The notes under the pieces are model-generated. The model did not search any database, was not told the DNA's origin, and saw only the letters and a list, made by a program, of their open reading frames with translations. 64,000 bases of DNA from positions 38,891 through 102,890 of the forward strand of contig ONGM01000143.1 of assembly GCA_900317365.1 (NCBI GenBank), written 5' to 3'. A program made the translations under genes and the position numbers. Position 1 is the first letter of the stretch. Each line of letters opens with the position of its first letter. Origin of the DNA: an uncultured Planctomycetota bacterium. GTDB taxonomy: Bacteria; Planctomycetota; Planctomycetia; Pirellulales; Thermoguttaceae. Of the stretch, positions 12,834-30,271 are shown piece by piece.

Positions 12834-13920
12834 TTTCTTTACTCTCGGCCATGTAATGTGTGAAACGGCTGAAAAGATACAAACTGTCTTGCGGTCCCGG
12901 CGCGCTTTCTGGGTGATACTGAACGCTAAAAACGCGATCGTCGGAACATTCAACGCCTTCGACCGTGTTGTCGAGAAGGTTGATATGCGTAATCTTTAAA
13001 TTCGTGCATTCCAAGCTTTCTGCGTCGACTGCGTAACTGTGGTTTTGCGACGTTATTTCGATCCTATTCGTCAAGAGATTTTTAACCGGATGATTGCCGC
13101 CGCGATGTCCGAATTTCAACTTATACGTCTTGGCGCCGTATGCAAGAGATATGATTTGGTGCCCTAAACAAACTCCGAAGACAGGAACGGAACCTCGTAA
13201 ACGCTTGACTGTGTCCACGACTTCCGGCACGTCCGTCGGATCGCCAGGTCCGTTCGAAACGAATACGCCGTCGGGTCTCATAAAGAGAATCTCTTCGGCT
13301 GGCGTGTTATAAGGAACGATCACGACGTTACACGAAAATCTCTTTAGTGAACGAACGAGATTAAGTTTCATTCCACAATCGATCGCAACGACGTTAAAGA
13401 TAGGATCCGCAGTGCGAGAATAACGCTTTTTTTTGCAAGAGACTCGCGACACGGCGTCGTTAGGGATCGGCGTCGACTGAATGCGCGCCAGGGCGACGTC
13501 GAGCGGCGTGTCGACGCCCGTCATAATTGCTCGTCTTGATCCGTAATCGCGAATGCTTCTCGTTAGTCGCCTTGTGTCGACCCCCGTGATCCCAGGCGCG
13601 TTGCAATCCTCAAGAAGCTCGCTCAACGTTTTAACGGCGCGGAAGTTTGAAGGAGAATCGTTATAGTCCCCCACGATCATTCCGCCGATACTTGGATTGA
13701 CGCTCTCGAAATCGTCGTCGGTAATTCCATAATTACCGATGAGCGGATATGTCATCGTGACGAATTGATCCGTATACGACGGATCCGACGCAATCTCCTG
13801 ATATCCGACAGGAGAGGTGTTAAAAACGACTTCGCAAACACGTTCAACGCTTGCGCCAAAACCGTAACCGTAAAATTCTTTACCGTCTTCCAGCACCAAC
13901 TTTCGATCTTTTTTTCTCAT
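12826..13920 (-). CDS. carA: Carbamoyl-phosphate synthase small (glutaminase) subunit
   Basis: 364 aa with the class-I GATase motif VFGVCLGHQ and HRGGNHPV, ending [11 protein letters not shown]. Confidence 0.95.
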
Positions 13921-14007
13921 GATTTTCTCCGTCGCATGGTGAGGCGCGTCGGCAAGCAGGGCTTCATTTTTCGCTTGCTGTATGGCGTGTCGTTCCGGGT
14001 CGAGCGC

Positions 14008-14691
14008 TTAATCTCGACGCATGGCTATAATGGTTTCCGCTATTTCCTTTTTGGTTACGCAACGATCCATCGCTTGCTTTTCAATATAACGGTGCGCTTC
14101 TCCTTCCGTCATTTTCAATTGCTCGACAAGAAGCAACTTCGCATGATTGATTATGCGAATTTCTTTCATTTTTTCCTCAACAGTAGCCGTCTTTTTCTCC
14201 AGCATACGCAGTCGTTCTCGAACGCCGCATAGAAACGAAAGGTGTTGAAGAACGACCTGTCCCGCCGTTGGCTTCGAGAGAACGCACACCCCTCGAGGAG
14301 TCGCTTTCGCGTTGACTTCGGCAAAGACTTCCTGATACACAAAGATCATTGCGCACGCTCCGTGCTCGTCGCAGACGTCGAAAGCGAATTCTACGCCAAA
14401 TTCGTCCGGCAAAGGCGCGTTTACAACGATAACGTCATAGCTTCTTTCAAGGAACTTCCTTTTAGCGTCCGCAGCGGTCGTTACAGTCGTCGGGCGATAC
14501 TTGGGTTTAGGAAGGATCATGACGAGCGAGTTTGCAAAAGCGGCGCTCGCCGACACAATGAGAATCGAATAAGAACGGTCGAGATAAAAATCGTCGTCTC
14601 GACGTTTCGCCCTTCTTCCTCCTAATACGCCGTCGATTCCTCCGCGCGAAGATCGGCGCTCATGAGTTGTGCTGAAACCTTGCGATTCCAT
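14008..14691 (-). CDS. ANTAR-domain RNA-binding antiterminator with N-terminal pseudo-receiver
   Basis: The C-terminus IRIINHAKLLLVEQLKMTEGEAHRYIEKQAMDRCVTKKEIAETII fits ANTAR. The receiver-like part has ILIVSASA in place of the DD pocket and VIVVNAPLP in place of the phospho-Asp, while LSKP is retained. Confidence 0.8.
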   Translation of the reverse strand: MESQGFSTTHERRSSRGGIDGVLGGRRAKRRDDDFYLDRSYSILIVSASAAFANSLVMILPKPKYRPTTVTTAADAKRKFLERSYDVIVVNAPLPDEFGVEFAFDVCDEHGACAMIFVYQEVFAEVNAKATPRGVCVLSKPTAGQVVLQHLSFLCGVRERLRMLEKKTATVEEKMKEIRIINHAKLLLVEQLKMTEGEAHRYIEKQAMDRCVTKKEIAETIIAMRRD

Positions 14692-14721
14692 AGCGCGTCC
14701 TCTCTGTTTTTCTAAACGCGT

Positions 14722-15945
14722 TTATTCTTCGTCGGCAAGCGCAATGTAGTGGTTCGCGATTTGTTGTGGTATTTTTTCGTTAATTAAGGAACTGCTTTTA
14801 GTTGCTTCGGCGGCTTCGCGAAGGGACAACGGCACGCGCTCTTCGACAATGCGTTCAGACTCTTGATTCGCGCCGGGCTCAATCGGAAGCGGCGGTTGTA
14901 CTTCGTTGTCGATCCCGTCGAGAGCCGACCAAATAAGCAACGCGTTCGCCAAATACGGATTGCAGGTAGAATCAGGAGTTCCGAGTTCTACCGTCTTTCG
15001 ATCGGCGCCGTCGTTTGAGAGACGAACGATCTGTTCGCAACTCTCGCGAGACCATGCGACTTTTTTGGGCACGTTGCTTTCTCTCAATCTTTGATACGAA
15101 TTCGCCGTCGGATTAAAAAAGAGCGTCATTGCGCAAATATTCTTCAAAAGACCGCCAATTGCGTAACGCCAATACTCGTTATTGTTACCGTTATTCTGTT
15201 GGATGCGAAATTTCAATCTCATCGCGTTTCCAGGTTGATTCGCCATTGGCAGAGGGGAAAAATCTGCGAAAAGTCCGTGCGCCGCAGCGATCGTATTAAC
15301 GACAAAGCGAAACGTTACCGCCGCGTCCGCCGCCGCGAGAGGATCTAGCGAACAAAAATCTATTTCATTCTGTCCCGGTCCAACCTCGTGGTGAGAACTC
15401 ACCGGTTTGACTCCCATTTGCTCGAGACTCAGACATATTTCTCGGCGAATGTTTTCACCTTTGTCGTCAGGTGACACGTCCATATATCCTGCGGAGTCGA
15501 AAGGTTCCCGCGTTGGTAAGCCGTTCTCGTCGCGACGGAAAAGATAGAATTCCATTTCGGAACTAATAGCAAAGGAAACGCCCTTAGATTCAGCTTCTTG
15601 AATCGCTCGAATTAAAACCGACCGCGAATCGGACTCAAAAGACGTTCCGTCGGGATAAGAGATCGAGCAAAACATTCGAATAACTCTTCCCCGTTCCGGA
15701 CGCCACGGTAAGACCGCGATCGTCGACGTGTCCGGACGGAGTAAAAGATCAGAGTTTGCGCGCGTTTCAAACCCGCGAATTGCCGAAGATTTAATTGGAA
15801 CGCCGCACTCGAACGCATTTCGCAATTCGTCCGACATGATCGACGTATTCTTCTTGCGACCAAAAACGTCCGTAAACGCGAGACGAATGAATTTAACGTC
15901 TTCTTCGGCTACGTACTGCTCAATTTCATTGATTGTATATTTCAT
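14722..15945 (-). CDS. Glutamine synthetase type-I-like protein, divergent and possibly non-catalytic
   Basis: The GS N-terminus (VKFIRLAFTDVFG), EMEFYLF, HHEVGPGQNEIDF and NPTANSYQRL are present. However, GSGMHxHxSL is replaced by GNAMRLKFRI and E-V-R-x-PD by E-L-G-T-PD. I prefer the start at ATG 15945 over TTG 15966. Confidence 0.8.
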   Translation of the reverse strand: MKYTINEIEQYVAEEDVKFIRLAFTDVFGRKKNTSIMSDELRNAFECGVPIKSSAIRGFETRANSDLLLRPDTSTIAVLPWRPERGRVIRMFCSISYPDGTSFESDSRSVLIRAIQEAESKGVSFAISSEMEFYLFRRDENGLPTREPFDSAGYMDVSPDDKGENIRREICLSLEQMGVKPVSSHHEVGPGQNEIDFCSLDPLAAADAAVTFRFVVNTIAAAHGLFADFSPLPMANQPGNAMRLKFRIQQNNGNNNEYWRYAIGGLLKNICAMTLFFNPTANSYQRLRESNVPKKVAWSRESCEQIVRLSNDGADRKTVELGTPDSTCNPYLANALLIWSALDGIDNEVQPPLPIEPGANQESERIVEERVPLSLREAAEATKSSSLINEKIPQQIANHYIALADEE

Positions 15946-15998
15946 TTGCGTCTTTCTATCTTCCAACGATCAATCATCTCGTGATCGTAGACAAAGCG

Positions 15999-16721
15999 TC
16001 AGTTCGCGACGTACATTTGCTTATAAGGATTAGCGACGTTCGGCGTGACCAGAGTAAAAGGTTCGTCAATAATCTTGGCAAAATCGTATCCAAACGTTTC
16101 ACAGAACTTTGCGATCAATGGACGAATTTCAGCCAAGTCTTCAGGATTTGCTATTTTTACCGTTGTTTGCTCGGGAAAAGAAACGGTTCCGAGCCCGCCT
16201 CGAACGAAAAGCTTTCCGCCGTGCATACCCGCGCATGGGAACGCTCCTAACGTTTCCTTGTCGTCCTTATGCAGACCAAGAGCTACGATCAGTCCACCCG
16301 CCTGATATTCTCCTAAAAAGCTACCGACACGTCCGCCGATGACGATCGCAGGCTTTTTCTCTTTGTATTCCTTCATATGGATGCCGACGCGATAGCCGGC
16401 GTTTCCTTGAACGAGTATTATTCCACCGCGCATCGCGTATCCGACCGCGTCGCCAACATTTCCATGAATCACAATCAAGCCGTCGTTCATCGTGTCTCCG
16501 ACCGCGTCTTGCGCGTTCCCTTCTACGATGATTTCCGAGCCGGCAAGGTAAGCGCCGAGCGCGTTGCCCGGAACGCCGGAAATCACAATTCGCTTGCCGC
16601 GAGATCCCGACGCGATGAAACGTTGTCCGAGACACTCGACGATTTTCAGTTCGTCGCCCGACTGATAAATCTCGTCGTTCAAAACGTCAAAACTCTTATT
16701 TTTGGCTTCTATCACTCTCAC
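15999..16721 (-). CDS. Glutamate synthase GXGXG-domain subunit (GltB C-terminal domain homolog)
   Basis: Repeated G-x-G beta-helix motifs (ISGVPGNALGAYLAG, VEGNAQDAVGDTMNDG, IHGNVGDAVGYAMRGG, VQGNAGYRVG). I prefer the start at GTG 16721, 5 nt after a GGAGG, over the track's TTG 16769. Confidence 0.8.
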   Translation of the reverse strand: MRVIEAKNKSFDVLNDEIYQSGDELKIVECLGQRFIASGSRGKRIVISGVPGNALGAYLAGSEIIVEGNAQDAVGDTMNDGLIVIHGNVGDAVGYAMRGGIILVQGNAGYRVGIHMKEYKEKKPAIVIGGRVGSFLGEYQAGGLIVALGLHKDDKETLGAFPCAGMHGGKLFVRGGLGTVSFPEQTTVKIANPEDLAEIRPLIAKFCETFGYDFAKIIDEPFTLVTPNVANPYKQMYVAN

Positions 16722-16790
16722 TTTTGCCTCCGAACGTCGATGAATGCACACCTGTTGCGTTGCGATCAAACCAAGGAACAGAACTGCTCG

Positions 16791-18296
16791 TTACTCGCCT
16801 GCGTGTTTAATTCCTAAAATGTCCAATTCCTTTTCGGTCATACCGATACCTCGCAACATCAACCGATTTCCTCGAAGCGTTTCTATGGAGTTAATTCCCA
16901 TGCCGCCCATGAGTTCTTTAATTTCATGGCGCCACGCGGACAGAAGATTTACAAGTCTTCTGGCGCCGACGTTAGGATCAAGTCTTTGAACAAGTTCCGG
17001 TCGTTGAGTGGCGATTCCCCAATTGCATCGACCCGTCTGACATGAACGACATAGTCGACATCCCAACGCGATCAACGCAGCCGTGGCGATATAACATGCG
17101 TCCGCGCCCAATGCAATCGCTTTAACGACGTCGGCCGCGTTACGAATACTCCCGCCGACAACGAGGGAAACGTTGTTTCGTATACCTTCCGCACGAAGTC
17201 GTTCGTCTACCGCAGCGAGCGCTAGTTCGACGGGAATTCCAACGTTGTCGCGAATACGCGTCGGCGCCGCGCCTGTTCCACCTCGAAAACCGTCGATCGC
17301 GATAATATCCGCGCCGCTACGCGCCACTCCGCTAGCGATCGCGGCAATGTTATGTACCGCTGCAACTTTAACGATGATCGGCTTAGTGCGCCTGGTCGCT
17401 TCTTTCAGAGAGTAGACCAATTGGCGGAGATCCTCGATCGAATACACGTCGTGATGCGGCGCCGGCGAAATGGCGTCGACTCCTTCTGGGATCATTCTCG
17501 TTCTCGACACGTCGCCTACAATTTTGGCGCCCGGTAAGTGCCCGCCGACTCCCGGCTTTGCTCCCTGCCCCATCTTGATCTCGATCGCCGCTCCTGCGTT
17601 GAGATAATCCTCGTGAACGCCAAAGCGCCCGGAAGCGACCTGCACGATCGTATTTGCGCCGTATCGATAGAAGTCCTCATGAAGACCGCCTTCACCGGTA
17701 TTATAGAAGACCCCGAGTTCCTGAGCCGCGCGCGCTAAACTTTCATGCGCGTTGTAACTGATCGAGCCGTAGCTCATCGCCGAAAACATGACCGGCGTCT
17801 CCAGGACAAGTTGCGGCTCCATCGACACGTCCAACGAGCCGTCCGAAGCCCGACGAATTTGCTCAGGCTTTTTGCCCAGAAAAACGCGCGTTTCCATTGG
17901 TTCGCGCAGTGGATCAATCGAGGGGTTGGTTACCTGCGACGCGTTGATCAGTATTCGATCCCAATAGACCGGAGTCGGTTTAGGCGCCCCCATCGACGAG
18001 AGCAAAACCGCGCCGGTATTCGATTGTTTGACGATCTCGCTGATCAAATCGGCGGACCAATTGGCATTCTCTTTGAACGAATTCTCATTCTTGACGATTT
18101 TGAGCGCGCGCGTCGGACACATCGCGACGCAACGCTGACAGTCGACGCATTTGCTTTCGTCGACGACAAGCTTTCGCGAGCGCTCGTCAATTCGATGAAC
18201 TCCATTGGCGCATTCGCGAACGCATAAATTACACGACACGCACCGTTCGAGATTTCTTACAACGTCAAACTCAGAGGAAAGGTACTGGACGGACAT
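16791..18296 (-). CDS. Glutamate synthase FMN/Fe-S subunit with N-terminal 2x[4Fe-4S] ferredoxin domain (archaeal type)
   Basis: CVSCNLCVRECA and CVDCQRCVAMCP, then GEGG, KMGQGAKPGVGGHLPG and the GGTGAAP FMN-domain motifs. Its ATG shares one base with the upstream stop (TAATG). Confidence 0.85.
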   Translation of the reverse strand: MSVQYLSSEFDVVRNLERCVSCNLCVRECANGVHRIDERSRKLVVDESKCVDCQRCVAMCPTRALKIVKNENSFKENANWSADLISEIVKQSNTGAVLLSSMGAPKPTPVYWDRILINASQVTNPSIDPLREPMETRVFLGKKPEQIRRASDGSLDVSMEPQLVLETPVMFSAMSYGSISYNAHESLARAAQELGVFYNTGEGGLHEDFYRYGANTIVQVASGRFGVHEDYLNAGAAIEIKMGQGAKPGVGGHLPGAKIVGDVSRTRMIPEGVDAISPAPHHDVYSIEDLRQLVYSLKEATRRTKPIIVKVAAVHNIAAIASGVARSGADIIAIDGFRGGTGAAPTRIRDNVGIPVELALAAVDERLRAEGIRNNVSLVVGGSIRNAADVVKAIALGADACYIATAALIALGCRLCRSCQTGRCNWGIATQRPELVQRLDPNVGARRLVNLLSAWRHEIKELMGGMGINSIETLRGNRLMLRGIGMTEKELDILGIKHAGE

Positions 18297-19387
18297 TAGA
18301 GCGCTCCTTTCTGAACCTTGAAAATCACCGGTTCGCCCCCTGCCGGAGCATAGACCTTTTCGGCGTTTGGCGCCATGATTCGTATCGCGGCTTCTTCGCT
18401 TGCGACGTAACGCATGTCGTCCTTTTCCGCAACAACCATCGAGCGCAACTTCAGTCGATCGTTGAGCGCCATAAGTCCCCCGTCAAATCCTAAAACAATC
18501 GAAAAAGGCCCCGTTAAAAGGAGACTCGGAAAAACCTTGCGAAGGTAAGAAAGCTGCTCCGATTCTTTTTGCGGGAGACTGTCGACAACGCTCCAAAAGG
18601 GAGCGGCTATTACGGCCGCAGTCTCTTCGAGCGTCAGCTTTTGTCGACGCAAGAGGTAATCGGCAATATACGCGATGACTTCCGTGTCCGTCTGAAGCGA
18701 ACATTTGTATCCAAACATCTCGATAAACCGTCGATTGGCGTCGTAAGAGGAAATCTCCCCGTTATGTACAACAGTGTAATCGAGGATTCCAAACGGATGG
18801 GCGCCTCCCCACCATCCAGGCGTATTCGTGGGGTAACGTCCGTGCGCCGTCCAAGCGTATCCTGCGTATTCTTCCAATCGATAAAACCGTCCAACGTCTT
18901 CCGGAAACCCGACCGCCTTAAAGGCGCCCATGTTTTTCCCGCTAGAAAAAACGTACGAACCTTGAAATTGCGAATTGATTTTTATGACGGTTCGCGCGAC
19001 AAATTCTTTTTCATCGAGCTGAAGACGAGAAAGAACAGACTGCAACGGCGCGACAAAATAGCGCCATATTATCGGTACGTCGGTAATTTCAGGGATCTTG
19101 CGAATTGGTATCGGTTCCGACTTGACGATCTCGTAGCCTTCTTTGAGGTACTTTTCGCACTCTTTTTGCGCGGCGACGTCGTCAAAAAAAACATGAAAGG
19201 CGTAGAAGTCTTGAAAATCCGGATAAATCCCATACCCTGCGAATCCGCCCCCGAGACCGTTGGATCTGTCGCGCATGGGAACCATACTCTTGGTAATGGC
19301 CTCGCCTGTTGTCGCCGCGCCCTTGAGCGAAATCATCGCTGAAATCGCGCATCCTGAAGGAATACGAACCTGTCCTTCCCTTTGCAT
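18296..19387 (-). CDS. Class-II (Ntn) glutamine amidotransferase subunit of split glutamate synthase
   Basis: 363 aa containing RIPSGCAIS..., HGRYPTNTPG and VHNGEISSY. The catalytic Cys is residue 13. Confidence 0.85.
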   Translation of the reverse strand: MQREGQVRIPSGCAISAMISLKGAATTGEAITKSMVPMRDRSNGLGGGFAGYGIYPDFQDFYAFHVFFDDVAAQKECEKYLKEGYEIVKSEPIPIRKIPEITDVPIIWRYFVAPLQSVLSRLQLDEKEFVARTVIKINSQFQGSYVFSSGKNMGAFKAVGFPEDVGRFYRLEEYAGYAWTAHGRYPTNTPGWWGGAHPFGILDYTVVHNGEISSYDANRRFIEMFGYKCSLQTDTEVIAYIADYLLRRQKLTLEETAAVIAAPFWSVVDSLPQKESEQLSYLRKVFPSLLLTGPFSIVLGFDGGLMALNDRLKLRSMVVAEKDDMRYVASEEAAIRIMAPNAEKVYAPAGGEPVIFKVQKGAL

Positions 19388-19413
19388 AGACTCTCACCCT
19401 TTCTGCTGACGCC

Positions 19414-19467
19414 AAAAAAAAAAGCGCCCACTCGCGGAAGTACTCTACGTGCTTCGCGAATGAACGC
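19414..19467 (-). terminator. Leader (attenuator) terminator of the glutamate-synthase operon
   Basis: Minus-strand RNA reads GCGUUCAUUCGCGAAG-cacguagagua-CUUCCGCGAGUGGGCGC followed by U10. That gives 16 bp including 3 GU pairs and one bulged C. It ends 26 nt before the ATG at 19387. Confidence 0.7.
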
Positions 19468-19477
19468 CTTTGCTCAT
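19460..19477 (-). promoter_or_regulatory. Hexaloop hairpin (candidate ANTAR-binding antiterminator element)
   Basis: AUGAGC-AAAGGC-GUUCAU is a 6-bp stem with a 6-nt loop carrying A at position 1 and G at position 4. Its 3' arm is part of the terminator's 5' arm, so the two structures are mutually exclusive. Confidence 0.5.
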
Positions 19478-19574
19478 CGGTGAAACATTTTAGCGCCTCT
19501 TTCGAAAACGTCAAGGAAAAAGAATGAAAAAATTTAAGAAAAGGTAATCTTTTAACAGACGTTTCAACAGATTT

Positions 19575-19604
19575 ATTATACCATTGAGACGCGTCGATGC
19601 TTAA
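19575..19604 (-). promoter_or_regulatory. Candidate promoter of the glutamate-synthase operon (TTAAGC-18-TGgTATAAT)
   Basis: An extended -10 TGGTATAAT (-10 hexamer at 19575..19580) and a weak -35 (19599..19604). This implies a leader of about 180 nt. Confidence 0.4.
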
Positions 19605-19690
19605 AAACAAGTAGCATTCTTGCAAGTATTAAACTTATGACAACATATTTTGACTTCTTTTCCTAAACTTATAAAATCGCATATTCGAGT

Positions 19691-19753
19691 CAAAGGCGAG
19701 AAAAACCGATTCGATTTCCCTCGCCTTTGCGAGAAAAACGGCGACTCCGTTTC
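19691..19753 (-). terminator. Nested hairpins downstream of asnB (probable terminator region)
   Basis: On the minus strand, AAACGG-agucg-CCGUUUUU lies directly after the asnB stop. It is followed by CAAAGGCGAG-19 nt-CUCGCCUUUG (10 bp), with the alternative CUCGC-AAAG-GCGAG. Confidence 0.4.
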
Positions 19754-19759
19754 AGCCCC

Positions 19760-21340
19760 TTAAATTCCGCTCGCTCCGTAGTTCGAAAGAACGCGCGCGG
19801 AAGGATCGTTGACGTCGCAACCTTTCCAGCTCTTATTCGGCATCCAGAAGTCGACGATCATTTGACTTTGTTCAGGATAATACTTCTCAAAGATCTCACG
19901 ATACAACAACGATTCCTTCGTGAATGGAGTCGCATGCGCGAACTTGCCGCGTTTCGAATCAAATTCGGCGTCGGAATAGCGACTTTCGGCAAACTCTTTC
20001 AAGTAATCGACCATGGAATGACCGACGGCGTCGGAAAACGCCGCTTTTTCCCGATACAAAATCTCAGGAGGAAGGTATTCGCCGTCTTCAAAAGCCTTTC
20101 GCAACAAGTATTTTCCTTTGTTGTAGACGTTCATTTTCTTGTGCGGATCAATTGACAAGACGTATTTAACGAAATCAAGATCGCCGAACGGTACGCGCGC
20201 TTCGAGCGAGTTCACTGAAATACAGCGGTCGGCGCGCAAGACGTCGTACATATGAATCTCGCGAATACGTTTCTCGGACTCGAGTTGGAACTCTTCGGCA
20301 GAAGGTGCGAAGTCCGTGTACTTGTAGCCAAAAAGCTCGTCGGAAATTTCTCCCGTGAGCAGAACGCGAATATCGGTGTTTTCGTGAATCCATTTGCAAA
20401 GAAGATACATTCCCATGCTGGCGCGAATTGTCGTTATATCGAACGTGCCGAGCATTCTCACGACAAAATCGAGAGAGTCGAGAACTTCCTCTTTCGTCAT
20501 GTACACCTCGGTATGAACGCTTCCAATATAGTCGGCGACCGTTTTTGCGTATTTTAAATCGATGGCGTCTTCGCTCATGCCAATGCCAAAGGTTTTTATC
20601 GGCGTTCTCAATTCCTTTTGCGCTATCGCGCAGACAAGGGACGAGTCGAGACCGCCGGAAAGAAGAAACCCGATTTTCGAATCGGATTCCAAACGTTTTT
20701 TGACGCCTGCGATCAACTTTGATTTGATCTTGGAAAAAGTCGTAGGAAGATCGTCTCTCGAATACGTCTCGACTTTAGCGATATCGCAATAGCAAAAGAA
20801 GCGACCGTCTTTATAGTAATGCCCCGGCGGAAAAGGGAGCGTTTTTTGACACAGTGAAACGAGGTTTTTCGGTTCGCTGGCAAAAACGATGGCGCCCGAC
20901 TCCGTATACCCGTAGTACAGCGGTCGAATCCCGACGGGATCGCGCGCCGCTATCAGGGTCTGCGCTTCCGCGTCGTATAATATCAAGGCGAACTCGGCGT
21001 CAAGTTCCTTAAACATCTCGACGCCTTTTTCTCGATATAGAGGGAGCAGTATTTCGCAATCGGATCCGCTTTTAAAGCGATACGTTTTGGACAGTTCACG
21101 CTTGAACTTTTGGAATCCATAGATTTCTCCGTTACATACGAGCCAATTATCACCGAGCTGGAAAGGCTGCATACCTTCCGGAGTCAAGCCCATAATTGAA
21201 AGGCGATGAAACCCGAAGTATCCGTTCCCGACTTTTACAATGCGAGAATCGTCAGGTCCCCTCGAAACCGTTTCAGAAAATCCTTTTTGAAAATCCGCAA
21301 GCGAAACGCTCGCGCTATCGCAACCCATAATAGAACACAT
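19760..21340 (-). CDS. asnB: Asparagine synthase (glutamine-hydrolysing)
   Basis: The start is set at ATG 21340 so the protein begins MCSIMGC (Ntn Cys2), with a GAAAGGA RBS. FLLSGGLDSS is the PP-loop. The track ORF start at 21412 is too long. Confidence 0.9.
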   Translation of the reverse strand: MCSIMGCDSASVSLADFQKGFSETVSRGPDDSRIVKVGNGYFGFHRLSIMGLTPEGMQPFQLGDNWLVCNGEIYGFQKFKRELSKTYRFKSGSDCEILLPLYREKGVEMFKELDAEFALILYDAEAQTLIAARDPVGIRPLYYGYTESGAIVFASEPKNLVSLCQKTLPFPPGHYYKDGRFFCYCDIAKVETYSRDDLPTTFSKIKSKLIAGVKKRLESDSKIGFLLSGGLDSSLVCAIAQKELRTPIKTFGIGMSEDAIDLKYAKTVADYIGSVHTEVYMTKEEVLDSLDFVVRMLGTFDITTIRASMGMYLLCKWIHENTDIRVLLTGEISDELFGYKYTDFAPSAEEFQLESEKRIREIHMYDVLRADRCISVNSLEARVPFGDLDFVKYVLSIDPHKKMNVYNKGKYLLRKAFEDGEYLPPEILYREKAAFSDAVGHSMVDYLKEFAESRYSDAEFDSKRGKFAHATPFTKESLLYREIFEKYYPEQSQMIVDFWMPNKSWKGCDVNDPSARVLSNYGASGI

Positions 21341-21390
21341 TTTGCATTCCTTTCTCGATGATCCTTTGATAATCTTTTGTGTAATGGCAT

Positions 21391-21436
21391 AAAACCCGCC
21401 CGCAGACGACAAGCCCTGGAAATCGTCGCGGGCGGG
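21391..21436 (-). terminator. GC-rich hairpin plus UUUU between amt-PII and asnB (terminator or partial terminator)
   Basis: Minus strand: CCCGCCCGCGACGA-13 nt-UCGUC(U)GCGGGCGGG followed by UUUUA. Confidence 0.5.
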
Positions 21437-21490
21437 CGCCAGACACGCGCGTCTGGCTTATTTCATTGGCGGACAGTTTTCCGTGTTTGA

Positions 21491-23236
21491 TTACGCTTCC
21501 TCGTCTTGCAACGCGTCGTAACCTTCCTCGCCTGTCCTCACTTTGATCGCGTTTTCAACGTCGTAGACGAAGATCTTGCCGTCTCCGATTCTGCCGGTGT
21601 ACAATGTCTTTTTAACCGTGTCGATTAGATCGCTCACAGGTATCTTGCTAATAACGACGTCAACTTGAACCTTTGGTAAAAGATTCGTTTCAACTTGTAC
21701 CCCGCGGTAATACTCCGGGCGTCCGCGTTGAACGCCGCAGCCTAAAACGTGCGAGACGGTCATTCCGGTAACGCCGAGCGCCGACAAAGCCTCTTTCAAC
21801 GCGTCGAACCTTGATTCTTTGCATATAATCTCGACCTTCGTGAGTTTCCGCGTTCCCTGACTAGTAGTCGTTGCAAAGATTGGTTCACGTTTAACAGGGA
21901 TAGCCTCGGCAACGGGAACGTCGCCTTGAACTACCTGAACGCCGCCGATCGGCGCAAAATCGGAGAACCGATTGACTGCCGGTGCAAAATCAGGATACGC
22001 CGACGGAAGTCCGTGTTCAGTCTTGTCCAAACCGAGAATCTCATCTTCAGCGTTGACGCGCATTCCGACTGTAAGATCAATCAGCTTGAAGGCAATACAA
22101 AGGACGACGAGGGCGTAGGCGGCAACGCTAGCAATGCCGAGGCATTGAATCTTTAACGCTGAGAGGTCGCCGGTGTAAAAAAGACCAGAAATTCCAGCCG
22201 GCGCGTCGGGATTAGCAAAAAGTCCAACCGCAAACGTTCCCCAAACGCCGCACGCTAGATGAACGCCAACGGCGCCGACCGGATCGTCAATGTGAAATCT
22301 CAGATCGAGCTTTTCGACGATGAAGACGACGAGAAAACCTGCGACAATTCCGATAATGATCGAACCGATCGCGTCAACCGCGTCGCAACCTGCCGTAATT
22401 CCAACCAAGCCGGCGAGAGACGCGTTTAGGCACATCGAAACGTCGGGTTTGCCGTTTTTCACCCAGGTATAAACCAGCGCGGCGCACGTAGCGAACGCAG
22501 GAGCTAGGGTTGTTGTGAGAAAGATTGCGGAGAGTTCGGACGCAGACGTTGCCGCCGCGCCGTTAAAGCCGTACCATCCTAGCCACAAAATGAACACTCC
22601 CAACGCGCCAAGCGTGATTGAATGTCCAGGAATCGCGTTGATCTTTGAAACCTTTCCGCGATCGTCGCGACGATATTTCCCAATTCGCGCTCCGAGCAGG
22701 ATCGCGCCGATCAGAGCGGCGAATCCGCCGACCATGTGAATCGCGCAAGAACCGGCGTAATCGTGAAAACCTCGTTGCGCAAGCCAACCGCCGCCCCAAA
22801 TCCAATGCGCCTCGATAGGATAAACGAGGAGCGAAAGAATGATCGAATACAAACAGTAGGCTGAGAATTTCGTTCGTTCAGCCATGGCGCCGGACGCGAT
22901 CGTTGCGGTCGTTGCACAGAAGACAAGGTTGAAGACGAACGTCGAAGCCGGAGTGAACTCGTCGGCGGAAGGATTCGTTATGAACAATTTGAAATTGGTG
23001 AAAATCTCGAAATTTGGTCTTCCAATCAGCCCGAAAAAAGAATCGGCGCCAATGAGAAGAGAGTATCCAAGCGTGGAAAACGCCACCGCGCCTAGACAAA
23101 AATCCATGAGATTCTTCATGACGATATTACCGGCGTTCTTCGAACGAGTAAATCCGGCTTCAACCATCGCGAATCCCGCTTGCATCCAAAAGACTAACGC
23201 CGCGCCAATTAAAAACCAAAACTCAACGGTAATCAC
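21491..23236 (-). CDS. Ammonium transporter (Amt) fused to a C-terminal P-II (GlnK/GlnB) domain
   Basis: The Amt core has FWMQAGFAMVEAGF, AIHMVGGFAAL and VHLACGVWG. The last ~118 aa (21494..21847) are KVEIICKESRFDALKEALSALGVTGMTVSHVLGCGVQRGRPEYYRG...GDGKIFVYDVENAIKVRTGEEG, which is P-II. The start is probably GTG 23236, 7 nt after an AGGAG that overlaps the glnN stop; the track's TTG 23242 is too close to the RBS. Confidence 0.9.
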   Translation of the reverse strand: MITVEFWFLIGAALVFWMQAGFAMVEAGFTRSKNAGNIVMKNLMDFCLGAVAFSTLGYSLLIGADSFFGLIGRPNFEIFTNFKLFITNPSADEFTPASTFVFNLVFCATTATIASGAMAERTKFSAYCLYSIILSLLVYPIEAHWIWGGGWLAQRGFHDYAGSCAIHMVGGFAALIGAILLGARIGKYRRDDRGKVSKINAIPGHSITLGALGVFILWLGWYGFNGAAATSASELSAIFLTTTLAPAFATCAALVYTWVKNGKPDVSMCLNASLAGLVGITAGCDAVDAIGSIIIGIVAGFLVVFIVEKLDLRFHIDDPVGAVGVHLACGVWGTFAVGLFANPDAPAGISGLFYTGDLSALKIQCLGIASVAAYALVVLCIAFKLIDLTVGMRVNAEDEILGLDKTEHGLPSAYPDFAPAVNRFSDFAPIGGVQVVQGDVPVAEAIPVKREPIFATTTSQGTRKLTKVEIICKESRFDALKEALSALGVTGMTVSHVLGCGVQRGRPEYYRGVQVETNLLPKVQVDVVISKIPVSDLIDTVKKTLYTGRIGDGKIFVYDVENAIKVRTGEEGYDALQDEEA

Positions 23237-23247
23237 GACCAATCTCC

Positions 23248-25344
23248 TTATCGAACGCTAAACAGGATCTTTTCATAGGTCGGGAACGGCCAATATTTTT
23301 CAGCGACGAGTGTTTCCGCTTCGTCGCACACTAGGCGCAACTCCGTCATTCGCGGCAAGATCTCGTCGCGAATCATAACGGACGCCTCGGTAACGTCGCC
23401 AATCGTTTTGAGTTGTACGAGCGATACGTCTAGTCTCTGGGTCGCGGCGTCAATTTCGTCAACGATACGTGAAAGCTTTGCGAGGAGGTTCTTTTCATAC
23501 CGTCCTGATACTTCCGGCGCAATGGCGTTTTTGGCGACGGCCGTTTCCGCAATGTCTTTAACATAGGATTCGACGGCCGGCAAAATATCCTTGCGCGCCA
23601 TATCCACCATCGTTAAGCCTTCGATCGTTACCGTCTTGCAGTAATTGTCCAACGTGATTTCGTATCGGGATCTAATCTCAGAAACAGAATAAATCCCGAG
23701 AGAGACGAGCAAATCGACGTTCTTTTTATTGAGAAGGGCCGGCAGAGCGTCCGGAGTCGTGCGGAGATTGAGAAGCCCGCGCTCTTCCGTCGCCTCTTTA
23801 ATCCATGCGTCGTCGTATCCGTTGCCGTTGAATACGACTCGACGATGGTCTTTGAACGTCTTTTTAATCATCTCGTGAAGCGCCGTCTCAAAATCGGTTG
23901 CGTTTTCCAAACGATCGGCGTAAATCTTGAGGGACTCGGCGACTGCGGCATTCAGCATGATATTGGCGCACGCAATGCTGTTTGAAGAGCCGAGCATACG
24001 GAATTCAAACTTATTGCCGGTAAAGGCAAAAGGAGACGTCCTGTTGCGATCCGTCGAATCGCGATTGAAATTCGGCAATACGTTAGCGCCCAGTTTCATA
24101 ACCGTCTTTTCCGCGCCGACGTAAGGAGCGTCGTTTACGATCGCGTCCATAATGGCGGTCAGTTCGTCCCCGAGGAAAATCGAAATCACCGCAGGAGGGG
24201 CTTCGTTCGCGCCAAGTCGATGGTCGTTGCCCGCCGTCGCTACCGATAGTCGAAGAAGATCTTGATAGTCGTCCACCGCCTTAATTACGGCGCAGAGGAA
24301 AAGGAGGAACTGCGCGTTCTCGTACGGCGTTTCACCAGGAGTCAAAAGGTTGACGCCTGTGTCCGTAGCCATCGACCAGTTGTTGTGCTTACCGGAACCG
24401 TTGACGCCTGCAAAAGGCTTTTCATGCAACAAGCAGACGAGACCGTGCCGAGAGGCAACCTTCTGCATGATCTCCATCGTTAATTGGTTGTGATCCGTGG
24501 CAACGTTCGTCGTCGTATATATCGGAGCGAGCTCGTGCTGAGCCGGCGCCACTTCGTTGTGTTCCGTTTTAGCGAGGATCCCAAGTTTCCACAACTCTTC
24601 GTTGAGGTCCGCCATATAGGCGGCGACGCGCGGCTTAATGACGCCGAAGTAATGATCCGACATTTCCTGCCCTTTCGGCGGTTTTGCGCCGAAGAGGGTT
24701 CGACCGGTCATGATCAAGTCTTTGCGTTCAAGAAAAACCTTTTCGTCGATCAGAAAATACTCTTGTTCCGGACCAACCGAAGTGCGAACGCATTTGACGT
24801 CCGTTTTGCCAAAGAGTTTTAAGATCCGCAACGCCTGAACGTTGAGCGCTTCCATCGATCGAAGGAGTGGCGTCTTTTTGTCCAACGCTTCGCCGCCGAA
24901 GGAACAGAACGCCGTCGGAATGCACAGCGTTTTTCCCTTAATGAACGCGTACGACGTCGGATCCCACGCCGTGTATCCCCGCGCTTCAAAGGTCGCGCGC
25001 AAACCGCCAGACGGAAAAGACGACGCGTCCGGTTCGCCTTTAATGAGCTCCTTACCGGAAAACTCCATAATGACGCGTCCGTCAGGGGACGGCGTAATAA
25101 AGCTGTCGTGTTTCTCGGCAGTTACGCCGGTAAGGGGCTGGAACCAGTGTGTAAAATGCGTCGCGCCGCGAGCAACCGCCCAATCCTTCATTGCAGCCGC
25201 CACCGCGTCGGCGACCCCGCGATCAAGGGGAGCGCCTTCGTCAATCGTTTTTTTCAGCGAGCGATAAACGTCGTCGGAAAGGGACGCCTTCATGACGCGG
25301 TCGTCGAACACCATAGAACCGAAATACTCGGGAACAGAACTCAT
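23248..25344 (-). CDS. glnN: Glutamine synthetase type III
   Basis: 698 aa. The N-terminus [20 protein letters not shown], plus [11 protein letters not shown] and GSGKHNNWS, are characteristic of GSIII. Confidence 0.9.
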
Positions 25345-25364
25345 CTCATTACCCCTTCATGCAC

Positions 25365-25407
25365 AAAAAAAGGCAACGACGTTTTGGAAAACCAAGACGC
25401 CGTTGCC
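25365..25407 (-). terminator. glnN leader terminator 2
   Basis: GGCAACGGCGU-c-UUGG-uuuu-CCAA-a-ACGUCGUUGCC followed by U7. It has 15 bp and ends about 20 nt before the ATG at 25344. Confidence 0.65.
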
Positions 25408-25410
25408 TCG
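25393..25410 (-). promoter_or_regulatory. Hexaloop hairpin H2 overlapping terminator 2
   Basis: CGAGGC-AACGGC-GUCUUG has a 6-bp stem (2 GU pairs) and a loop with A1/G4. It shares nucleotides with the 5' arm of terminator 2. Confidence 0.45.
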
Positions 25411-25420
25411 TTTTATCGAT

Positions 25421-25469
25421 AAACAAAAAAGGGGTCTCAGAAAAGAATTTTCATCTTTTCCGAGACCCC
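25421..25469 (-). terminator. glnN leader terminator 1
   Basis: GGGGUCUCGGAAAAG-9 nt-CUUUUCUGAGACCCC forms 15 bp and is followed by UUUUUUGUUU. Confidence 0.7.
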
Positions 25470-25478
25470 TTTGCCTCA
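25461..25478 (-). promoter_or_regulatory. Hexaloop hairpin H1 overlapping terminator 1
   Basis: UGAGGC-AAAGGG-GUCUCG has a loop with A1/G4. Its loop and 3' arm form the 5' arm of terminator 1. Confidence 0.45.
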
Positions 25479-25489
25479 TTCGATCGCTG

Positions 25490-25517
25490 ATTCTATACCA
25501 TGTCGCCGAATAGTCAA
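25490..25517 (-). promoter_or_regulatory. Sigma-70-like promoter of glnN operon (TTGACT-16-TAGAAT)
   Basis: -35 at 25512..25517 and -10 at 25490..25495 on the minus strand. Confidence 0.5.
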
Positions 25518-25566
25518 TAGGTTTTTGAAAAAATTTTTGAAATTCTCGCTCGAGATATTCTCAAAC

Positions 25567-25872
25567 CTACTCCAGCCAGAACGCTTCTTCCAACGATTCT
25601 GGAACGTCGTTTTCGCCGAGGTAAATCAGGGGGCGCATATAATCTTCCCACTTCTGCCGAACCTCGCTTGCTTCAAGCGTAGGAAGCAAACGGTCGGGGT
25701 CGTCCACTTCGTAGTACGCGAAAATGTCGGTTCCGGAAAGCCAAATCGAATAGTTTTTGTATCCAGCCTCTTTGAGAAGAGCCTTCATTTCCGGCCAAAT
25801 CTCGCGATGTCGTCTGATATACTCCTCGCGCGTCGAGGGATCCTTTAAAATCCATCTTTGTGCAACTCTCAT
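25567..25872 (-). CDS. rhaM: L-rhamnose mutarotase
   Basis: MRVAQRWILKDPSTREEYIRRHREIWPEMKALLKEAGYKNYSIWLSGTDIFAYYEV fits the RhaM/DUF718 family. I prefer ATG 25872 with a GGAGA RBS over the track's TTG 25887. Confidence 0.8.
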   Translation of the reverse strand: MRVAQRWILKDPSTREEYIRRHREIWPEMKALLKEAGYKNYSIWLSGTDIFAYYEVDDPDRLLPTLEASEVRQKWEDYMRPLIYLGENDVPESLEEAFWLE

Positions 25873-25942
25873 AGCTAGCTTCTCCAATTTGATTCTGTGT
25901 GTAAAGGTTAGCGTTCGCGAGACGACGTCTCTCCGAATTCGT

Positions 25943-28900
25943 TTATTTGCGATCGCGGCGGATTTGATAGTCTCCCCAGAGCGGAACGTTTAGATCAATC
26001 CAACATTTGATCGCCTGCTCTTCTTCGGGGCTTAAATTGACGCCGTCGTGTTGCGCCTCTTTAAGAACGTCGAATAGTCGACTCTTGGCGACGCCAAAGG
26101 TATACGGCGCGGCCTTCGTCGTTTTTCCGCCGCCCCATGTGTAGTCAAAGTAATGAATCGTTCCGCTTTGAATTAACGAGCGATATGAGTTCGGGATCTT
26201 GTTCGCGTCACGGTCGCCGGTCAAATCGATAATTCGTGAAGCTAGCGCCGCCGTATCGGCGTTATGACACTCGACGCAATGTTTGTTCAGAATCGGTTGA
26301 ACGATTCGTTCATACCAAAACGGGCCGGCTCCCCACGGCGGCGCGACCAGCCGTTGCGGATCGCCTGCCGACGCCTTCGTAAGTCCGCCTTCCGGGGCGC
26401 TCAATCGATTTTCATGACATCCTACGCACGAACGCCGTTCGCCAGGTCGGAGTTGGACGACGGAGCGCATGCGTTGAATCTCATTGTAATTCTCGTCCAA
26501 CAGTTCGAAAAAGAGAACTTTTTCCGCCGGAACGAGAAAATCGACGGAGCCGTCTTCTTCAATTTCTACCGTGCCGAGAACGCCTTTCGCAACGTACGAG
26601 GGCCACCCGTAGGCGCCTTGTAGAACGTCGACGGGCGAAGCGTAGTACTCCATGAAGGGTTCGTGATCGGCTTGATAGGTTCCGTCGTCGAGTTGAATGA
26701 GATTCGTCGGAAGCTCTTGGCACACGCGCAAGTACTTTGCGGCGCCCGGTTTGACCTGACCCTCTAGCCCTCGATAGACGTTGGCGACGGAAAAATAGCC
26801 AAGTTTCTGATCAGCAAGGGTCGGATCCGCCGAAGCGCCTGTGACCGGCGGCGTCTCGCGCGGCGCGAAAGGTTGGGGACAAATCGTGTCGATTTCGGGA
26901 TCAATCGTCAGTAACTCTCGATTGCCAAAGCGATCGATTAAGTAAACTCCAAATCGATCAAAATGTGCGTGCGAGACGAGAATAATATCCCTCGAAATAG
27001 GAGTCGGTTCGCGAAACGTTTCCGAGCGCGCCCAGTAGCCGGGCCAAGGGACCTCCGGCGTAATCGACCGAATAGCCGACGGATCGTGCGGTCCTTTCGA
27101 CAGATCGATCAGGGCAACCGGTCCGTTGAGGTCGCCAAAGTGTGAAATCATAACGCAACAGACTTCATTGGAATCGGGAACGCGTTTACCGTTCGCGTAA
27201 CCTTGCGGCAAGTTAATCGTGTTTCCAAATGTCAGCTCAGGCGACGTCCCGTCCGCGCGAATAGTCCACAACGTGTGCCCGTAATCCGCTCCTTTATCGA
27301 CGTATTCCGAACGCGTCCACATAATTCTCCCGTCGTCGCACACCGACGGCGCAAACTCGGAAAGATTGGCGTAGGAAAGAGGTTCCAAGCCCGTTCCGTC
27401 CATATCCATTCGATGAAGAACAAAAGCTTGCGGACGCCAACAGATGAATTTTTTCTTACATCTCGTCGATACGAACGCAAGACCTCCGTCGGGAAGTTCC
27501 GTAGGCCAAAAATCATGGAACGGTCCAGGCGGGCTTATGCGTCGCTCGACGCCGGAAGTCAGATCGAGTTCGAAGATGCGATAGTACTCGTTTTGACTGA
27601 TTCGTTTTGCATAGTAAATCTTTTGTGCATCAAAGCTTTGCGACGGATTTCTAATAACGCCGTCCCCTGCCTCGACAAGATTTCGAGCGGTTGCTTCTTC
27701 CGGGGCAAGCCGACCGTCTTTAAACGGTATGTCGATCATAACGACGGCGCCGCCGGGATTCCAGGTTGAATCAAAGAGGTCGCTATAGTTGTGCGACGGC
27801 CAAAATGGATTTCGCTTGTTGGCGAGAATGTGAGAAAGGGATTCTAATTCCGGATTGGAGAGGAAGAGATCGCGTTTTAAGAGTCTCACGCGTAGGAAAA
27901 GATTACGCGTCGCCAGTAGACTTTCACGGCGGCGCTGAGAATCTTCGTCGCGCGCTGAGTTTTTCAATGAGTCAAGGAAAAGTTGCCAACACGCAAGAGC
28001 TTCAGTCTCGACAGAAGAAAGCTCCGGACGCTTTTGAAGGTCGTTGAAATACTCAATCAGAGCTTCTGCTTCGCCTTGGTCTCCCAATTTAGCCAGAATT
28101 GCTTTTGAATCGACATATCTCGGATTAACGCTCCCGTTCCACCGAACCTGTTTTGCGAAGTCACGTTCGTCAAGCTCGGTCGAACGACTTTCGGAACGCT
28201 CGAGCATATCTTTGAGTTGACATAACGGACGATACGACGGGTTGTATTTCAATCCAACAACGCGAAATTTATCCCCAGACTTTTGATCAACGATCGAACA
28301 GACAAGTTCAGGACCGGCGTAGCCCCACTCTCCCTGAACCTTTGTAATCGTAGTTTTTCCCGGCTGAACGGAGACGTCTTCCGCATTGATCGAGAAAACG
28401 CGATCCTCGTCGGAAGTTCCGACAAGACGTATTTCGAAATCCGCTGAAAAATCATTCGGAGGAGCGAGTTCAAGCGCAAAAGGCGCAGGCTTAAAATGGA
28501 CAGGTCTCCCGCCTGGCATGACGCGTCGCGCGCCTATGCCTAACCCTACGTAAAATCCACGTTCTTTTACGTCAGGCAGAAATTGTAAGGGAATTTTCAC
28601 CTGAAGAGTGTTGGCGTCAGGATTAAAGCAACCGTCGAGTTCCGTTTCGGAGCCGGCGTCCCGTTCGTCGAGCGGATCGATCTGTTTCCAAAGAACTTTC
28701 GTTTCAACCTTTCCCTCACAAACGTCGTCGCGAAGCGTAATGAATGCGCGATCAGGTATGTTTTCAGTCCCGATCATCGCGATATTTTCGGAGAGAAACC
28801 GATCGCCTGAAATTCTAAGCAAAAGCGCGTCTGGCGTAAAAACTGCGCTCACGGTTTGCTCCAGAAGCCCCCCCAAGAAGAAGGAGCCGCCGTTAAAGAC

Positions 28901-29818: not shown

Positions 29819-30271
29819 AACCGGTTCATCGTCCTTTCTGCATCTTGGAAAACGCACTCTCTCGCTGGCAAACTACGCGCGCAATTCAAATCTGATATTC
29901 GGCGTTCATGGCGTCATTGTAATCGGTCGCGCTAGGAATTTAAAGCATAGAGAAAAGAATTTCTCTATTTGTGGTCGGAGTCTTCACGATATCGGGTTCG
30001 CGCCATGTGCACGACGTGGAGGTTCTCGGGACGCTCTACGAAGAATTCGCGAGCGTGGCCTTCAATTTCAAGCCATTCTACTCTGAATCGCCCGTTTTTC
30101 ATTCTTAGCAAAACCTTTGAAAAGTTCACAAAGCTAAGCGACAGCCAAGACCGCTACAAACAGGAAAGATCGTCTAAGATAGAGTCGTCTAGAATGAGAA
30201 AGATGTGCCGAAATGATCATAGGCGACTCGAAAGCAACCAAAGCAAATTGCATTGCAAGGTCGAAAGCGAC

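Follow-up and report, generated by a model that had tools for sequence, protein, structure and literature searches.

The 64,000-nt stretch of DNA analysed here (the window; NCBI GenBank assembly GCA_900317365.1, contig ONGM01000143.1, positions 38,891 to 102,890), from an uncultured Planctomycetota bacterium, carries on its minus strand an operon for a split, archaeal-type glutamate synthase (glt) composed of glutamine amidotransferase (GATase), FMN/Fe-S and GXGXG subunits. The RNA leader of this operon contains a small hairpin with a six-nucleotide loop (hexaloop) that overlaps a strong intrinsic terminator. This leader is probably a protein-dependent attenuator of the ANTAR family (NitR-like) that is built on one hexaloop hairpin and serves the antitermination of nitrogen genes. 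The initial annotation had proposed that the terminator keeps the operon off unless the hairpin is stabilized, implying ANTAR-type antitermination, and this proposal is now strongly supported by comparison, because hairpin and terminator covary, an ANTAR gene lies in the same operon, and the loops match published ANTAR seeds. It is likewise probable that this cis-encoded ANTAR protein operates the switch, through presumed binding to the hairpin and in answer to a presumed signal.

The targets of ANTAR proteins have been defined as two tandem hairpins (P1 and P2) of at least 3 bp with a variable linker, each bearing a hexaloop with A at its first and G at its fourth position (A1 and G4), of which P2 overlaps the terminator (Ramesh 2012, PMC3369931). 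The glt leader has the A1/G4 hexaloop, the 3′ half of its hairpin overlaps the 5′ arm of the terminator, and an ANTAR protein is encoded in the genome. Judged from its sequence, the element would work like an ANTAR antiterminator but falls outside the dual-hairpin definition of the family.

Hairpin, terminator and promoter of the glt leader

A hairpin of the form AUGAGC-AAAGGC-GUUCAU at 19460..19477 and a long terminator with ten U residues, 26 nt before the start codon, had been described in the initial annotation as mutually exclusive structures. Both are present on the minus strand (Table 1). The terminator stem (19471/19467..19424) has a lower part of approximately 16–20 bp and two further apical pairs, and this G+C-rich stem stands directly before the U10 tract, as is typical of intrinsic terminators. 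In minimum free energy (MFE) folds, GUUCAU and the loop are common to the small hairpin and the 5′ arm of the terminator, so that the one structure does exclude the other. With ViennaRNA, the terminator folds at −33.6 kcal/mol and the small hairpin alone at −4.7 to −6.2 kcal/mol, while constrained folding with the hairpin enforced yields −17.9 kcal/mol and leaves just an apical stem of 8–9 bp, at least 12 nt from the U tract. When successive prefixes of the RNA are folded, the MFE structure is the small hairpin for lengths to about 50 nt and the terminator thereafter. Because the terminator is far stronger than the hairpin in these folds, termination should be the default state. The folding z of the 188-nt leader is −2.6.

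The distribution of the element was followed with a structural scan for a RANGRN hexaloop hairpin, a downstream complement of the loop and 3′ arm, and a T-run, applied to the window and to 80 orthologous loci from species-representative genomes (961 kb), which together provide 81 leaders. The scan returned three sites in the window, where 0.17 would be expected from mononucleotide shuffles, and two of the three are leaders of nitrogen genes. The third, at 23254..23239, was rejected, as it overlaps the ribosome-binding site and start codon of amt and has a weak stem and tail. When the 64 kb were searched under relaxed settings, the only hairpins of this type followed by a U-run were one in the glt leader and two in the leader of the glutamine synthetase (GS) gene GSIII, the second terminator of which ends approximately 20 nt before the ATG at 25344. 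Over all loci, 126 instances were found: 61 precede GATase genes, 40 precede GSIII, one precedes Amt and 24 were left unassigned by the scan, although most of the unassigned instances with a callable downstream open reading frame (ORF) precede glutamate dehydrogenase (gdh) genes. Those before GSIII often occur as two in series, each with its own terminator. Among the carriers of the module are the cultured Ruminococcus albus and Massiliimalia. An NADP-type gdh gene is situated between GSIII and the glt operon in several Clostridia (locus L065, 5292..6770 on the minus strand; also L020, L044, L058, L064, L067, L073 and L074) and is preceded by this hairpin and terminator module, singly or in two copies. 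Tandem arrangements are common in the gdh leaders as well as in those of GSIII.

The hairpin was found in 77 of the 81 orthologous leaders, with compensatory changes such as AUAAAC..GUUUAU, GUGAGC..GUUCAC and GUAAAC..GUUUGC. The overlapping terminator accompanies it in 75 of these 77, with at least 11 of the 13 positions of loop and 3′ arm paired to a segment farther downstream, itself followed by a U-run, and compensatory changes in the terminator fall at loop positions 3, 5 and 6. Pairing reaches 91.8% among 96 distinct hairpins, a percentage that is partly set by selection because the scan accepted only stems of 5 bp or longer. All of these hairpins pair at the five inner positions, changes on both sides fill 167 cells compared with 57 ± 17 in shuffles, and pairing drops to about 45% in slid registers. 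Positions C8, A10, G12, G15 and U16 are invariant in this set; within the loop, A1 occurs in at least 90%, A2 and G4 do not vary, and the C-G closing pair is fixed. The stems fall into two classes, AUGAG/UUCAU in glt leaders versus AAGG/UCUU (AAGGC/GUCUU) in GSIII and gdh leaders, both of which keep C-AANGRN-G, and this switch of stem sequence is not an effect of scan selection. G4 is invariant although its partner in the terminator varies (47 C, 12 U), which argues for a constraint on the G4 base itself.

The initial annotation had proposed a leader of approximately 180 nt, transcribed from a candidate extended −10 element, TGGTATAAT, about 180 nt upstream of the ATG. This element is present at 19583..19575, but as the main promoter of the operon it is probably wrong: the region that contains it is not alignable beyond near-identical strains, and it is conserved neither in L001 nor in L002. 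The hairpin is instead adjoined by a near-consensus sigma-70 promoter, TTGACG-16-TAAAAT (19514..19487), and promoters matching at least 10 of 12 consensus positions adjoin it in 74 of 75 orthologous leaders (all 12 positions in 39), the TTGACA of the orthologs lying 16–18 nt from the −10 hexamer in 74 of the 75. From the end of the −10 hexamer to the extended hairpin is 5–12 nt in 67 of these leaders, and 23 nt at most. An alignment of L001, L002 and near-identical strains is invariant from the −10 hexamer through the hairpin. A promoter also adjoins 35 of 62 GSIII-type hairpins; many of the others are probably downstream copies of tandem arrays. Because the conserved promoter ends 5–12 nt before it, the hairpin would lie at about +1. 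Transcription thus most likely starts at approximately 19481..19479, which would place the hairpin at the extreme 5′ end of a leader of about 93 nt, with 19493..19604 being mostly promoter and untranscribed spacer.

The presumed regulator and competing explanations

The ANTAR domain (PF03861) encoded by the last gene of the operon scores 56.5 bits in Pfam against a cutoff of 27.3, while the receiver domain (Response_reg) stays below its threshold (22.6 versus 30.2). Aligned to Rv1626 and NtrC, the receiver has SA in place of the DD of the acidic pocket and Asn in place of the phospho-accepting Asp, and this Asn is invariant among relatives. These substitutions identify the protein as a pseudo-receiver, as in AmiR. 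In EutV, Lys149, Glu160 and Met172 contact the hexaloop and Tyr164 stacks on G4 (Walshe 2022, PMC8934654). Alignments that include AmiR, EutV and NasR show the first three residues to be kept (K, E and M) and Tyr164 to be replaced by His, as it is in AmiR, and these positions are invariant in 10 relatives. On the RNA side, the AAAGGC loop is identical to those of eutA P2 (UUAAGC-AAAGGC-GCUUAA), nasF P2 (GGAU-AAAGGC-GUCC) and L. monocytogenes eutG P1 (GGUAC-AAAGGC-GUACU).

The gene order of the operon is syntenic in 47 loci, and the ANTAR gene is present in cis in 47 of 59 evaluable loci. It adjoins a gene for a type I glnA-like protein and is linked to GS and glutamate synthase (GOGAT) genes, which is the arrangement of NitR. 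The glnA-like gene itself is syntenic in 50 loci. Its family has the flap Glu replaced throughout, and the protein of the window has further departed from the GS motifs (GSGMH to GNAMR, NRS to SCE and ELR to ELG), which suggests a sensor rather than an enzyme, and in this lineage a pure sensor pseudo-enzyme. Synteny and analogy make the GlnA-like protein a candidate for sensing nitrogen and for partnering the ANTAR protein. Deletion of the type I GS of C. thermocellum is said, by the title of a paper, to "deregulate nitrogen metabolism". The catalytic motifs of the GlnA-like protein of the window (GNAMR, SCEQ, ELG) are more degenerate than those of its orthologs (GNGFH, NRSQ, ELR). The ANTAR protein has a basic, Ser/Arg-rich and poorly conserved N-terminal extension of about 35 aa (14590..14691, minus strand; P0121-P0129) that is present in all seven of the closest relatives examined and absent from the 194-aa clostridial orthologs.

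The switch may be real and yet be run by something other than an ANTAR protein, such as another RNA-binding protein (GlnA-like or PII), a small RNA or a metabolite. This is unlikely, although it draws on three facts: the binding of the hairpin by the ANTAR protein is a deduction, in 12 of the 59 evaluable loci the motif occurs with no ANTAR gene beside the operon, and the published ANTAR substrate is not one hairpin. However, the hairpin agrees in its loop and closing pair with ANTAR hairpins validated by experiment, the invariant G4 is the base that stacks on the ANTAR domain, and the ANTAR gene is syntenic in 47 loci. As for a metabolite, a hairpin of 18–20 nt is too small for a metabolite-binding fold, and it matches no Rfam family. 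Rfam gave no matches at gathering thresholds over the whole window, and nothing relevant at E ≤ 10 over 13500..26500, where mir-14 was a chance match to the hairpin after asnB; a riboswitch or T-box, including the glutamine riboswitch, was rejected on size and on this lack of a match.

A lower probability still attaches to a canonical dual-hairpin ANTAR element, in which a P1 hairpin would lie upstream, transcribed from TGGTATAAT or by read-through from asnB, and the hairpin described here would be P2. In its favour, TGGTATAAT makes a good extended −10, the upstream gene asnB is on the same strand and has no clear U-tract terminator, and EutV requires P1. Yet there is no A1/G4 hexaloop hairpin in the 60 nt upstream in the window. 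An enumeration of extra hairpins with ANNGNN loops and stems of 3 bp or longer, both upstream and within the terminator, was compared with shuffles; over 75 leaders, A1/G4 hexaloop hairpins were enriched neither upstream (12 leaders versus 11.3 expected) nor inside the terminator (6 versus 4.0), and the apical loops of the terminators, of 3 to 12 nt, include no hexaloop with both A1 and G4. A canonical dual-hairpin covariance model, prepared from 14 published seeds with K. oxytoca nasF left out, scored the glt leader of the window at noise level (9.8 bits, E = 1.4) and did not list the GSIII hairpins, and its best score over the 961 kb of the 80 loci was 18.3 bits (E = 0.18). The "P1" halves that it matched are not hexaloops or lie inside the promoter. 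The initial annotation had likewise seen no convincing P1 upstream, and visual inspection, the enumeration, the apical loops and the covariance model agree with it. Additionally, the near-consensus promoter fills the upstream region in 74 of 75 orthologs, this region is not alignable beyond the strain level, and the upstream gene is divergent in most orthologs, which makes read-through impossible there.

The leaders therefore lack the tandem P1 and P2 with a short linker, and because P1 has neither room in the transcript nor a statistical trace, the element departs from the canonical dual-hairpin ANTAR substrate. As far as comparison of the leaders can tell, the missing P1 is a real and conserved absence, and the conserved RNA determinant consists entirely of the one loop at the 5′ end.

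The least probable alternative is that there is no regulated switch at all, the hairpin being an mRNA-stabilizing 5′ stem-loop next to a constitutive leaky attenuator with which it competes incidentally: 5′-terminal hairpins can stabilize mRNAs, and in thermodynamic terms the terminator is far stronger than the small hairpin, but a stabilizing hairpin would not need a loop fixed over about 100 distinct hairpins of two stem classes, the element is specific to leaders of nitrogen-assimilation genes and repeated in tandem, and, unless something relieved it, a terminator of −34 kcal/mol with U10 located 26 nt ahead of the ATG would stop nearly all transcription.

As an ANTAR attenuator, the leader would work as follows. 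Transcription would start at approximately 19480 from TTGACG-16-TAAAAT, and the first 20 nt or so fold, as energy and covariation show, into GAUGAGC-AAAGGC-GUUCAUU. If unheld, this weak hairpin (about −5 kcal/mol) would have its loop and 3′ arm captured by the downstream arm to give the terminator (about −34 kcal/mol) and U10, and the energetics predict an operon that is off by default, with transcription stopping 26 nt before the ATG. A free ANTAR dimer would bind the hexaloop and lock the hairpin, with G4 presumably stacking on the His that replaces Tyr164 of EutV. The locked hairpin would leave the 8–9 bp apical stem, at least 12 nt from the U tract, and RNA polymerase would read through into the genes of the split glutamate synthase, the GlnA-like protein and the ANTAR protein. 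Because the ANTAR gene is inside the read-through operon, the circuit would be positively autoregulated, and because the receiver has no phospho-acceptor, activity is probably set by protein-protein sequestration. By analogy to AmiC-AmiR and GS-TnrA, the GlnA-like protein would be the nitrogen/glutamine sensor and would sequester the ANTAR protein under nitrogen sufficiency. In the window, GSIII (-amt-asnB) would be gated by two serial copies of this one-hairpin module, and in relatives the module would gate GSIII and gdh genes, generating a small nitrogen-assimilation regulon.

A more specific account has an even chance of being right. In rumen and gut Clostridia and in planctomycete-labelled metagenome-assembled genomes (MAGs), a single hexaloop at +1 may act co-transcriptionally with no recruitment hairpin, and the loss of P1 may be offset either by the 5′-terminal position, since the loop is the first RNA out of the polymerase, or by an oligomeric GS-like partner that delivers or releases the ANTAR dimer.

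Several points weigh against an ANTAR switch on one hairpin. Deletion of P1 abolishes EutV-dependent induction, and a single stem-loop is bound less well (Ramesh 2012, PMC3369931). A longer P1-P2 linker likewise abolishes antitermination by EutV (Ramesh 2012; Walshe 2022). EutV is the only system that has been tested in detail, and since it needs P1, a co-transcriptional switch with one hairpin runs against the tested model. In the 12 evaluable loci mentioned above, the motif is present but the 3 kb downstream of the operon contain no ANTAR gene. Part of the loop conservation could be structural, given that these bases pair in the terminator as well. The transcription start is deduced from promoter consensus alone, and the sensor role of the GlnA-like protein from synteny, residue substitutions and a paper title. 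For this organism and lineage, the support is comparative and computational.

The nitrogen module and its surroundings

Table 1. Coordinates of the leader elements and operon genes in the window
Feature	Position	Strand	Details and basis
Antiterminator hairpin, GAUGAGC-AAAGGC-GUUCAUU	19459..19478	−	7 bp; fold energy, covariation, match to published ANTAR seeds
Hairpin core, AUGAGC-AAAGGC-GUUCAU	19477..19460	−	Hexaloop AAAGGC at 19471..19466; A1, A2 and G4 present
Intrinsic terminator stem-loop	19424..19471	−	5′ arm formed by hexaloop, hairpin 3′ arm and UCGCGAAGCAC; MFE
Terminator U10 tract	19414..19423	−	Exactly ten U; U9 in some strains
26-nt spacer to ATG at 19387	19388..19413	−	Shine-Dalgarno-like AAAGGGUGA at 19402..19394; read from sequence
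−35 hexamer, TTGACG	19509..19514	−	Promoter scan; TTGACA equivalent in orthologs
−10 hexamer, TAAAAT	19487..19492	−	Promoter scan; ends 8 nt before extended hairpin
Extended −10 of the initial annotation, TGGTATAAT	19575..19583	−	Present; probably not the main promoter of the operon
GSIII leader promoter, TTGACT-16-TAGAAT	25517..25490	−	Promoter scan
GSIII leader hairpin 1, UGAGGC-AAAGGG-GUCUCG	25478..25461	−	Structural scan, folds
GSIII leader terminator 1 and U-run	25422..25472	−	19 pairs; −32.9 kcal/mol; overlaps loop and 3′ arm of hairpin 1
GSIII leader second attenuator	25366..25410	−	Hairpin 2 inside terminator 2; −30.1 kcal/mol; U7
GSIII leader hairpin 2, CGAGGC-AACGGC-GUCUUG	25410..25393	−	Scan, folds
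Controlled operon	14008..19387	−	ORFs and Pfam; gene gaps of at most 32 nt
GATase subunit, class-II glutamine amidotransferase, 363 aa	19387..18296	−	ORF; ATG at 19387
FMN/Fe-S glutamate synthase subunit	18296..16791	−	ORFs, Pfam
GXGXG subunit of glutamate synthase	16769..15999	−	ORFs, Pfam
GlnA-like (type I-alpha GS-like) protein, 414 aa	15966..14722	−	ORFs, Pfam
Pseudo-receiver ANTAR regulator, 227 aa	14691..14008	−	Presumed trans-acting factor; ORFs, Pfam

On the same strand and 5′ of the operon, Pfam identifies the glutamine synthetase GSIII, an Amt-PII fusion and asnB. The Amt and PII (GlnK-like) domains form a single fused ORF of 583 aa (21491..23242, minus strand) that begins 5 nt 3′ of the GSIII stop codon. 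Between amt-PII and asnB is a gap (21413..21490) with a G+C-rich palindrome, GCCAGACGCGCGUGUCUGGC, which has a T-run on the plus strand only; it could be a processing site or a terminator for antisense transcription.

The intergenic region that contains the glt leader is bounded on the minus strand by the stop codon of asnB (19760) and the GATase ATG (19387). After the asnB stop codon, at 19691..19729 (minus strand), there is a perfect 10-bp stem, CAAAGGCGAG...CUCGCCUUUG, without a U tract, and beside it a direct repeat of GTTTTTCTCGC at approximately 19737..19727 and 19703..19693. This hairpin contains C-AAAGGC-G and was considered as a further instance of the motif, but it cannot form the hexaloop hairpin, has no U tract, and was rejected. 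Possible identities are a terminator of asnB and an attenuator that has decayed.

Matches to the window come from rumen metagenome assemblies, and its closest relatives are MAGs labelled as planctomycete or Thermoguttaceae, followed by many Oscillospiraceae and Ruminococcus. The nitrogen module (14008..25517) is common to planctomycete- or Thermoguttaceae-labelled rumen MAGs (loci L001, L002 and L078) and many Clostridia, at 72–83% protein identity, and the shared part takes in the enzymes, the GlnA-like and ANTAR pair, the sigma-70-type promoters and the RNA leaders. The G+C content is uniform over the window at about 0.50, and glycoside hydrolases are neighbours of the module. This sharing across phyla suggests either an old inter-phylum transfer or mis-binned MAGs. 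Just 5′ of the GSIII leader is a small L-rhamnose mutarotase gene (25887..25567), which follows a 1304-aa ORF (25943..29857, minus strand) with a hydrazine-synthase-alpha middle domain and an F5/8 type C domain; rhamnosidases and a GH2 enzyme surround these two genes.

Relation to known ANTAR systems

Control of nitrogen-assimilation genes by ANTAR proteins is already known: it has been predicted, also for GS-ANTAR-GOGAT clusters of Firmicutes, and for NitR it is partly experimental. No report of the present single-hairpin system was found in the literature searched, and a 2025 review lists dual-hairpin ANTAR systems only. In the genome-wide tables of Ramesh (2012), Ruminococcus has no match, and C. 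thermocellum has one, before amt, and none at its GOGAT cluster. The leaders offer a natural test case for a question raised by later structural work. That work showed isolated hairpins to be bound by an ANTAR dimer, which touches a single hexaloop; it redefined the minimal motif accordingly and proposed P1 to be a recruitment hairpin (Walshe 2022, PMC8934654). The same authors asked how far single hexaloops are used, and expected them where no transcribing polymerase sets a time limit (Walshe 2022).

ANTAR regulators are widespread, and their targets are currently sought with the dual-hairpin model. Here, more than 100 independent modules of one hairpin and a terminator stand before core nitrogen genes (GOGAT, GSIII, GDH and Amt) of abundant rumen and gut Clostridia. 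If the reading proposed here is true, the definition of the ANTAR substrate widens, the EutV-derived rule of two hairpins and a strict linker is not general, and whole ANTAR regulons have been missed by dual-hairpin searches. A single-hairpin substrate would also be one explanation for the lack of published matches in Ruminococcus and at the GOGAT cluster of C. thermocellum, the leader of the latter being outside this comparison. The study of nitrogen control in fibre-degrading gut bacteria would be made easier, and the pairing of GS-like and pseudo-receiver ANTAR proteins would acquire a mechanistic handle. If it is not confirmed, the system would be an ordinary new member of the known ANTAR nitrogen-regulon family.

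The resemblance to EutV and the eut leaders of Enterococcus faecalis lies in the A1/G4 hexaloop closed by C-G, the sharing of the hairpin 3′ half with the 5′ arm of the terminator, and the conserved RNA-contact residues of the ANTAR domain. EutV, however, is a phosphorylated response regulator that needs both P1 and P2 with a strict short linker, whereas the protein described here has no phospho-acceptor and its presumed target is one hairpin at the 5′ end of the transcript. AmiR of the AmiC-AmiR pair of Pseudomonas aeruginosa is, like the protein of the window, a pseudo-receiver ANTAR protein with His at the position that stacks on G4, and its activity is set by a partner protein and not by phosphorylation, as would apply here by analogy. 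The partners differ, since AmiC is an amide sensor resembling periplasmic binding proteins and the putative partner here is GS-like; the amiE leader, moreover, is listed as dual-hairpin, in contrast to the one hairpin of the glt leader.

Among nitrogen regulators, NitR of C. saccharobutylicum has been described as an ANTAR protein that antiterminates GS/GOGAT genes when nitrogen is limiting (PMC6316151). In C. saccharobutylicum and C. acetobutylicum, its gene lies beside a type I glnA and is linked to GS/GOGAT, as is the ANTAR gene of the window, a likeness in gene arrangement. The co-expressed C. thermocellum cluster Clo1313_2030-2036, in which an antiterminator role was suggested for Clo1313_2030 (PMC4676874), has the same order from Clo1313_2036 to Clo1313_2030 (GATase, ferredoxin-dependent GOGAT, Fe-S protein, GXGXG, GS-I and ANTAR). 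The regulons predicted in Desulfotomaculum, Carboxydothermus and Desulforudis similarly have ANTAR-type hairpins, often several per unit, before GS, glutamate synthase and amt/PII genes, with an ANTAR gene beside the GS gene (Ramesh 2012, Table S2 and Fig S2). The GS/GOGAT leaders of Desulfotomaculum reducens have two hexaloops 5–7 nt apart (Ramesh 2012), in contrast to the one hexaloop hairpin per leader module found here. For the GlnA-like partner, the GS-TnrA/GlnR circuit of Bacillus subtilis, in which GS senses nitrogen and controls the regulator by direct binding (PMC6316151), provides a conceptual analogy of a GS protein as nitrogen sensor; its regulators are DNA-binding proteins of the MerR type and not RNA-binding antiterminators, and no sequence relationship is claimed. 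The present leaders would differ in their architecture, in which one hexaloop at approximately +1 makes up a self-contained attenuator, with serial copies where control has to be tighter.

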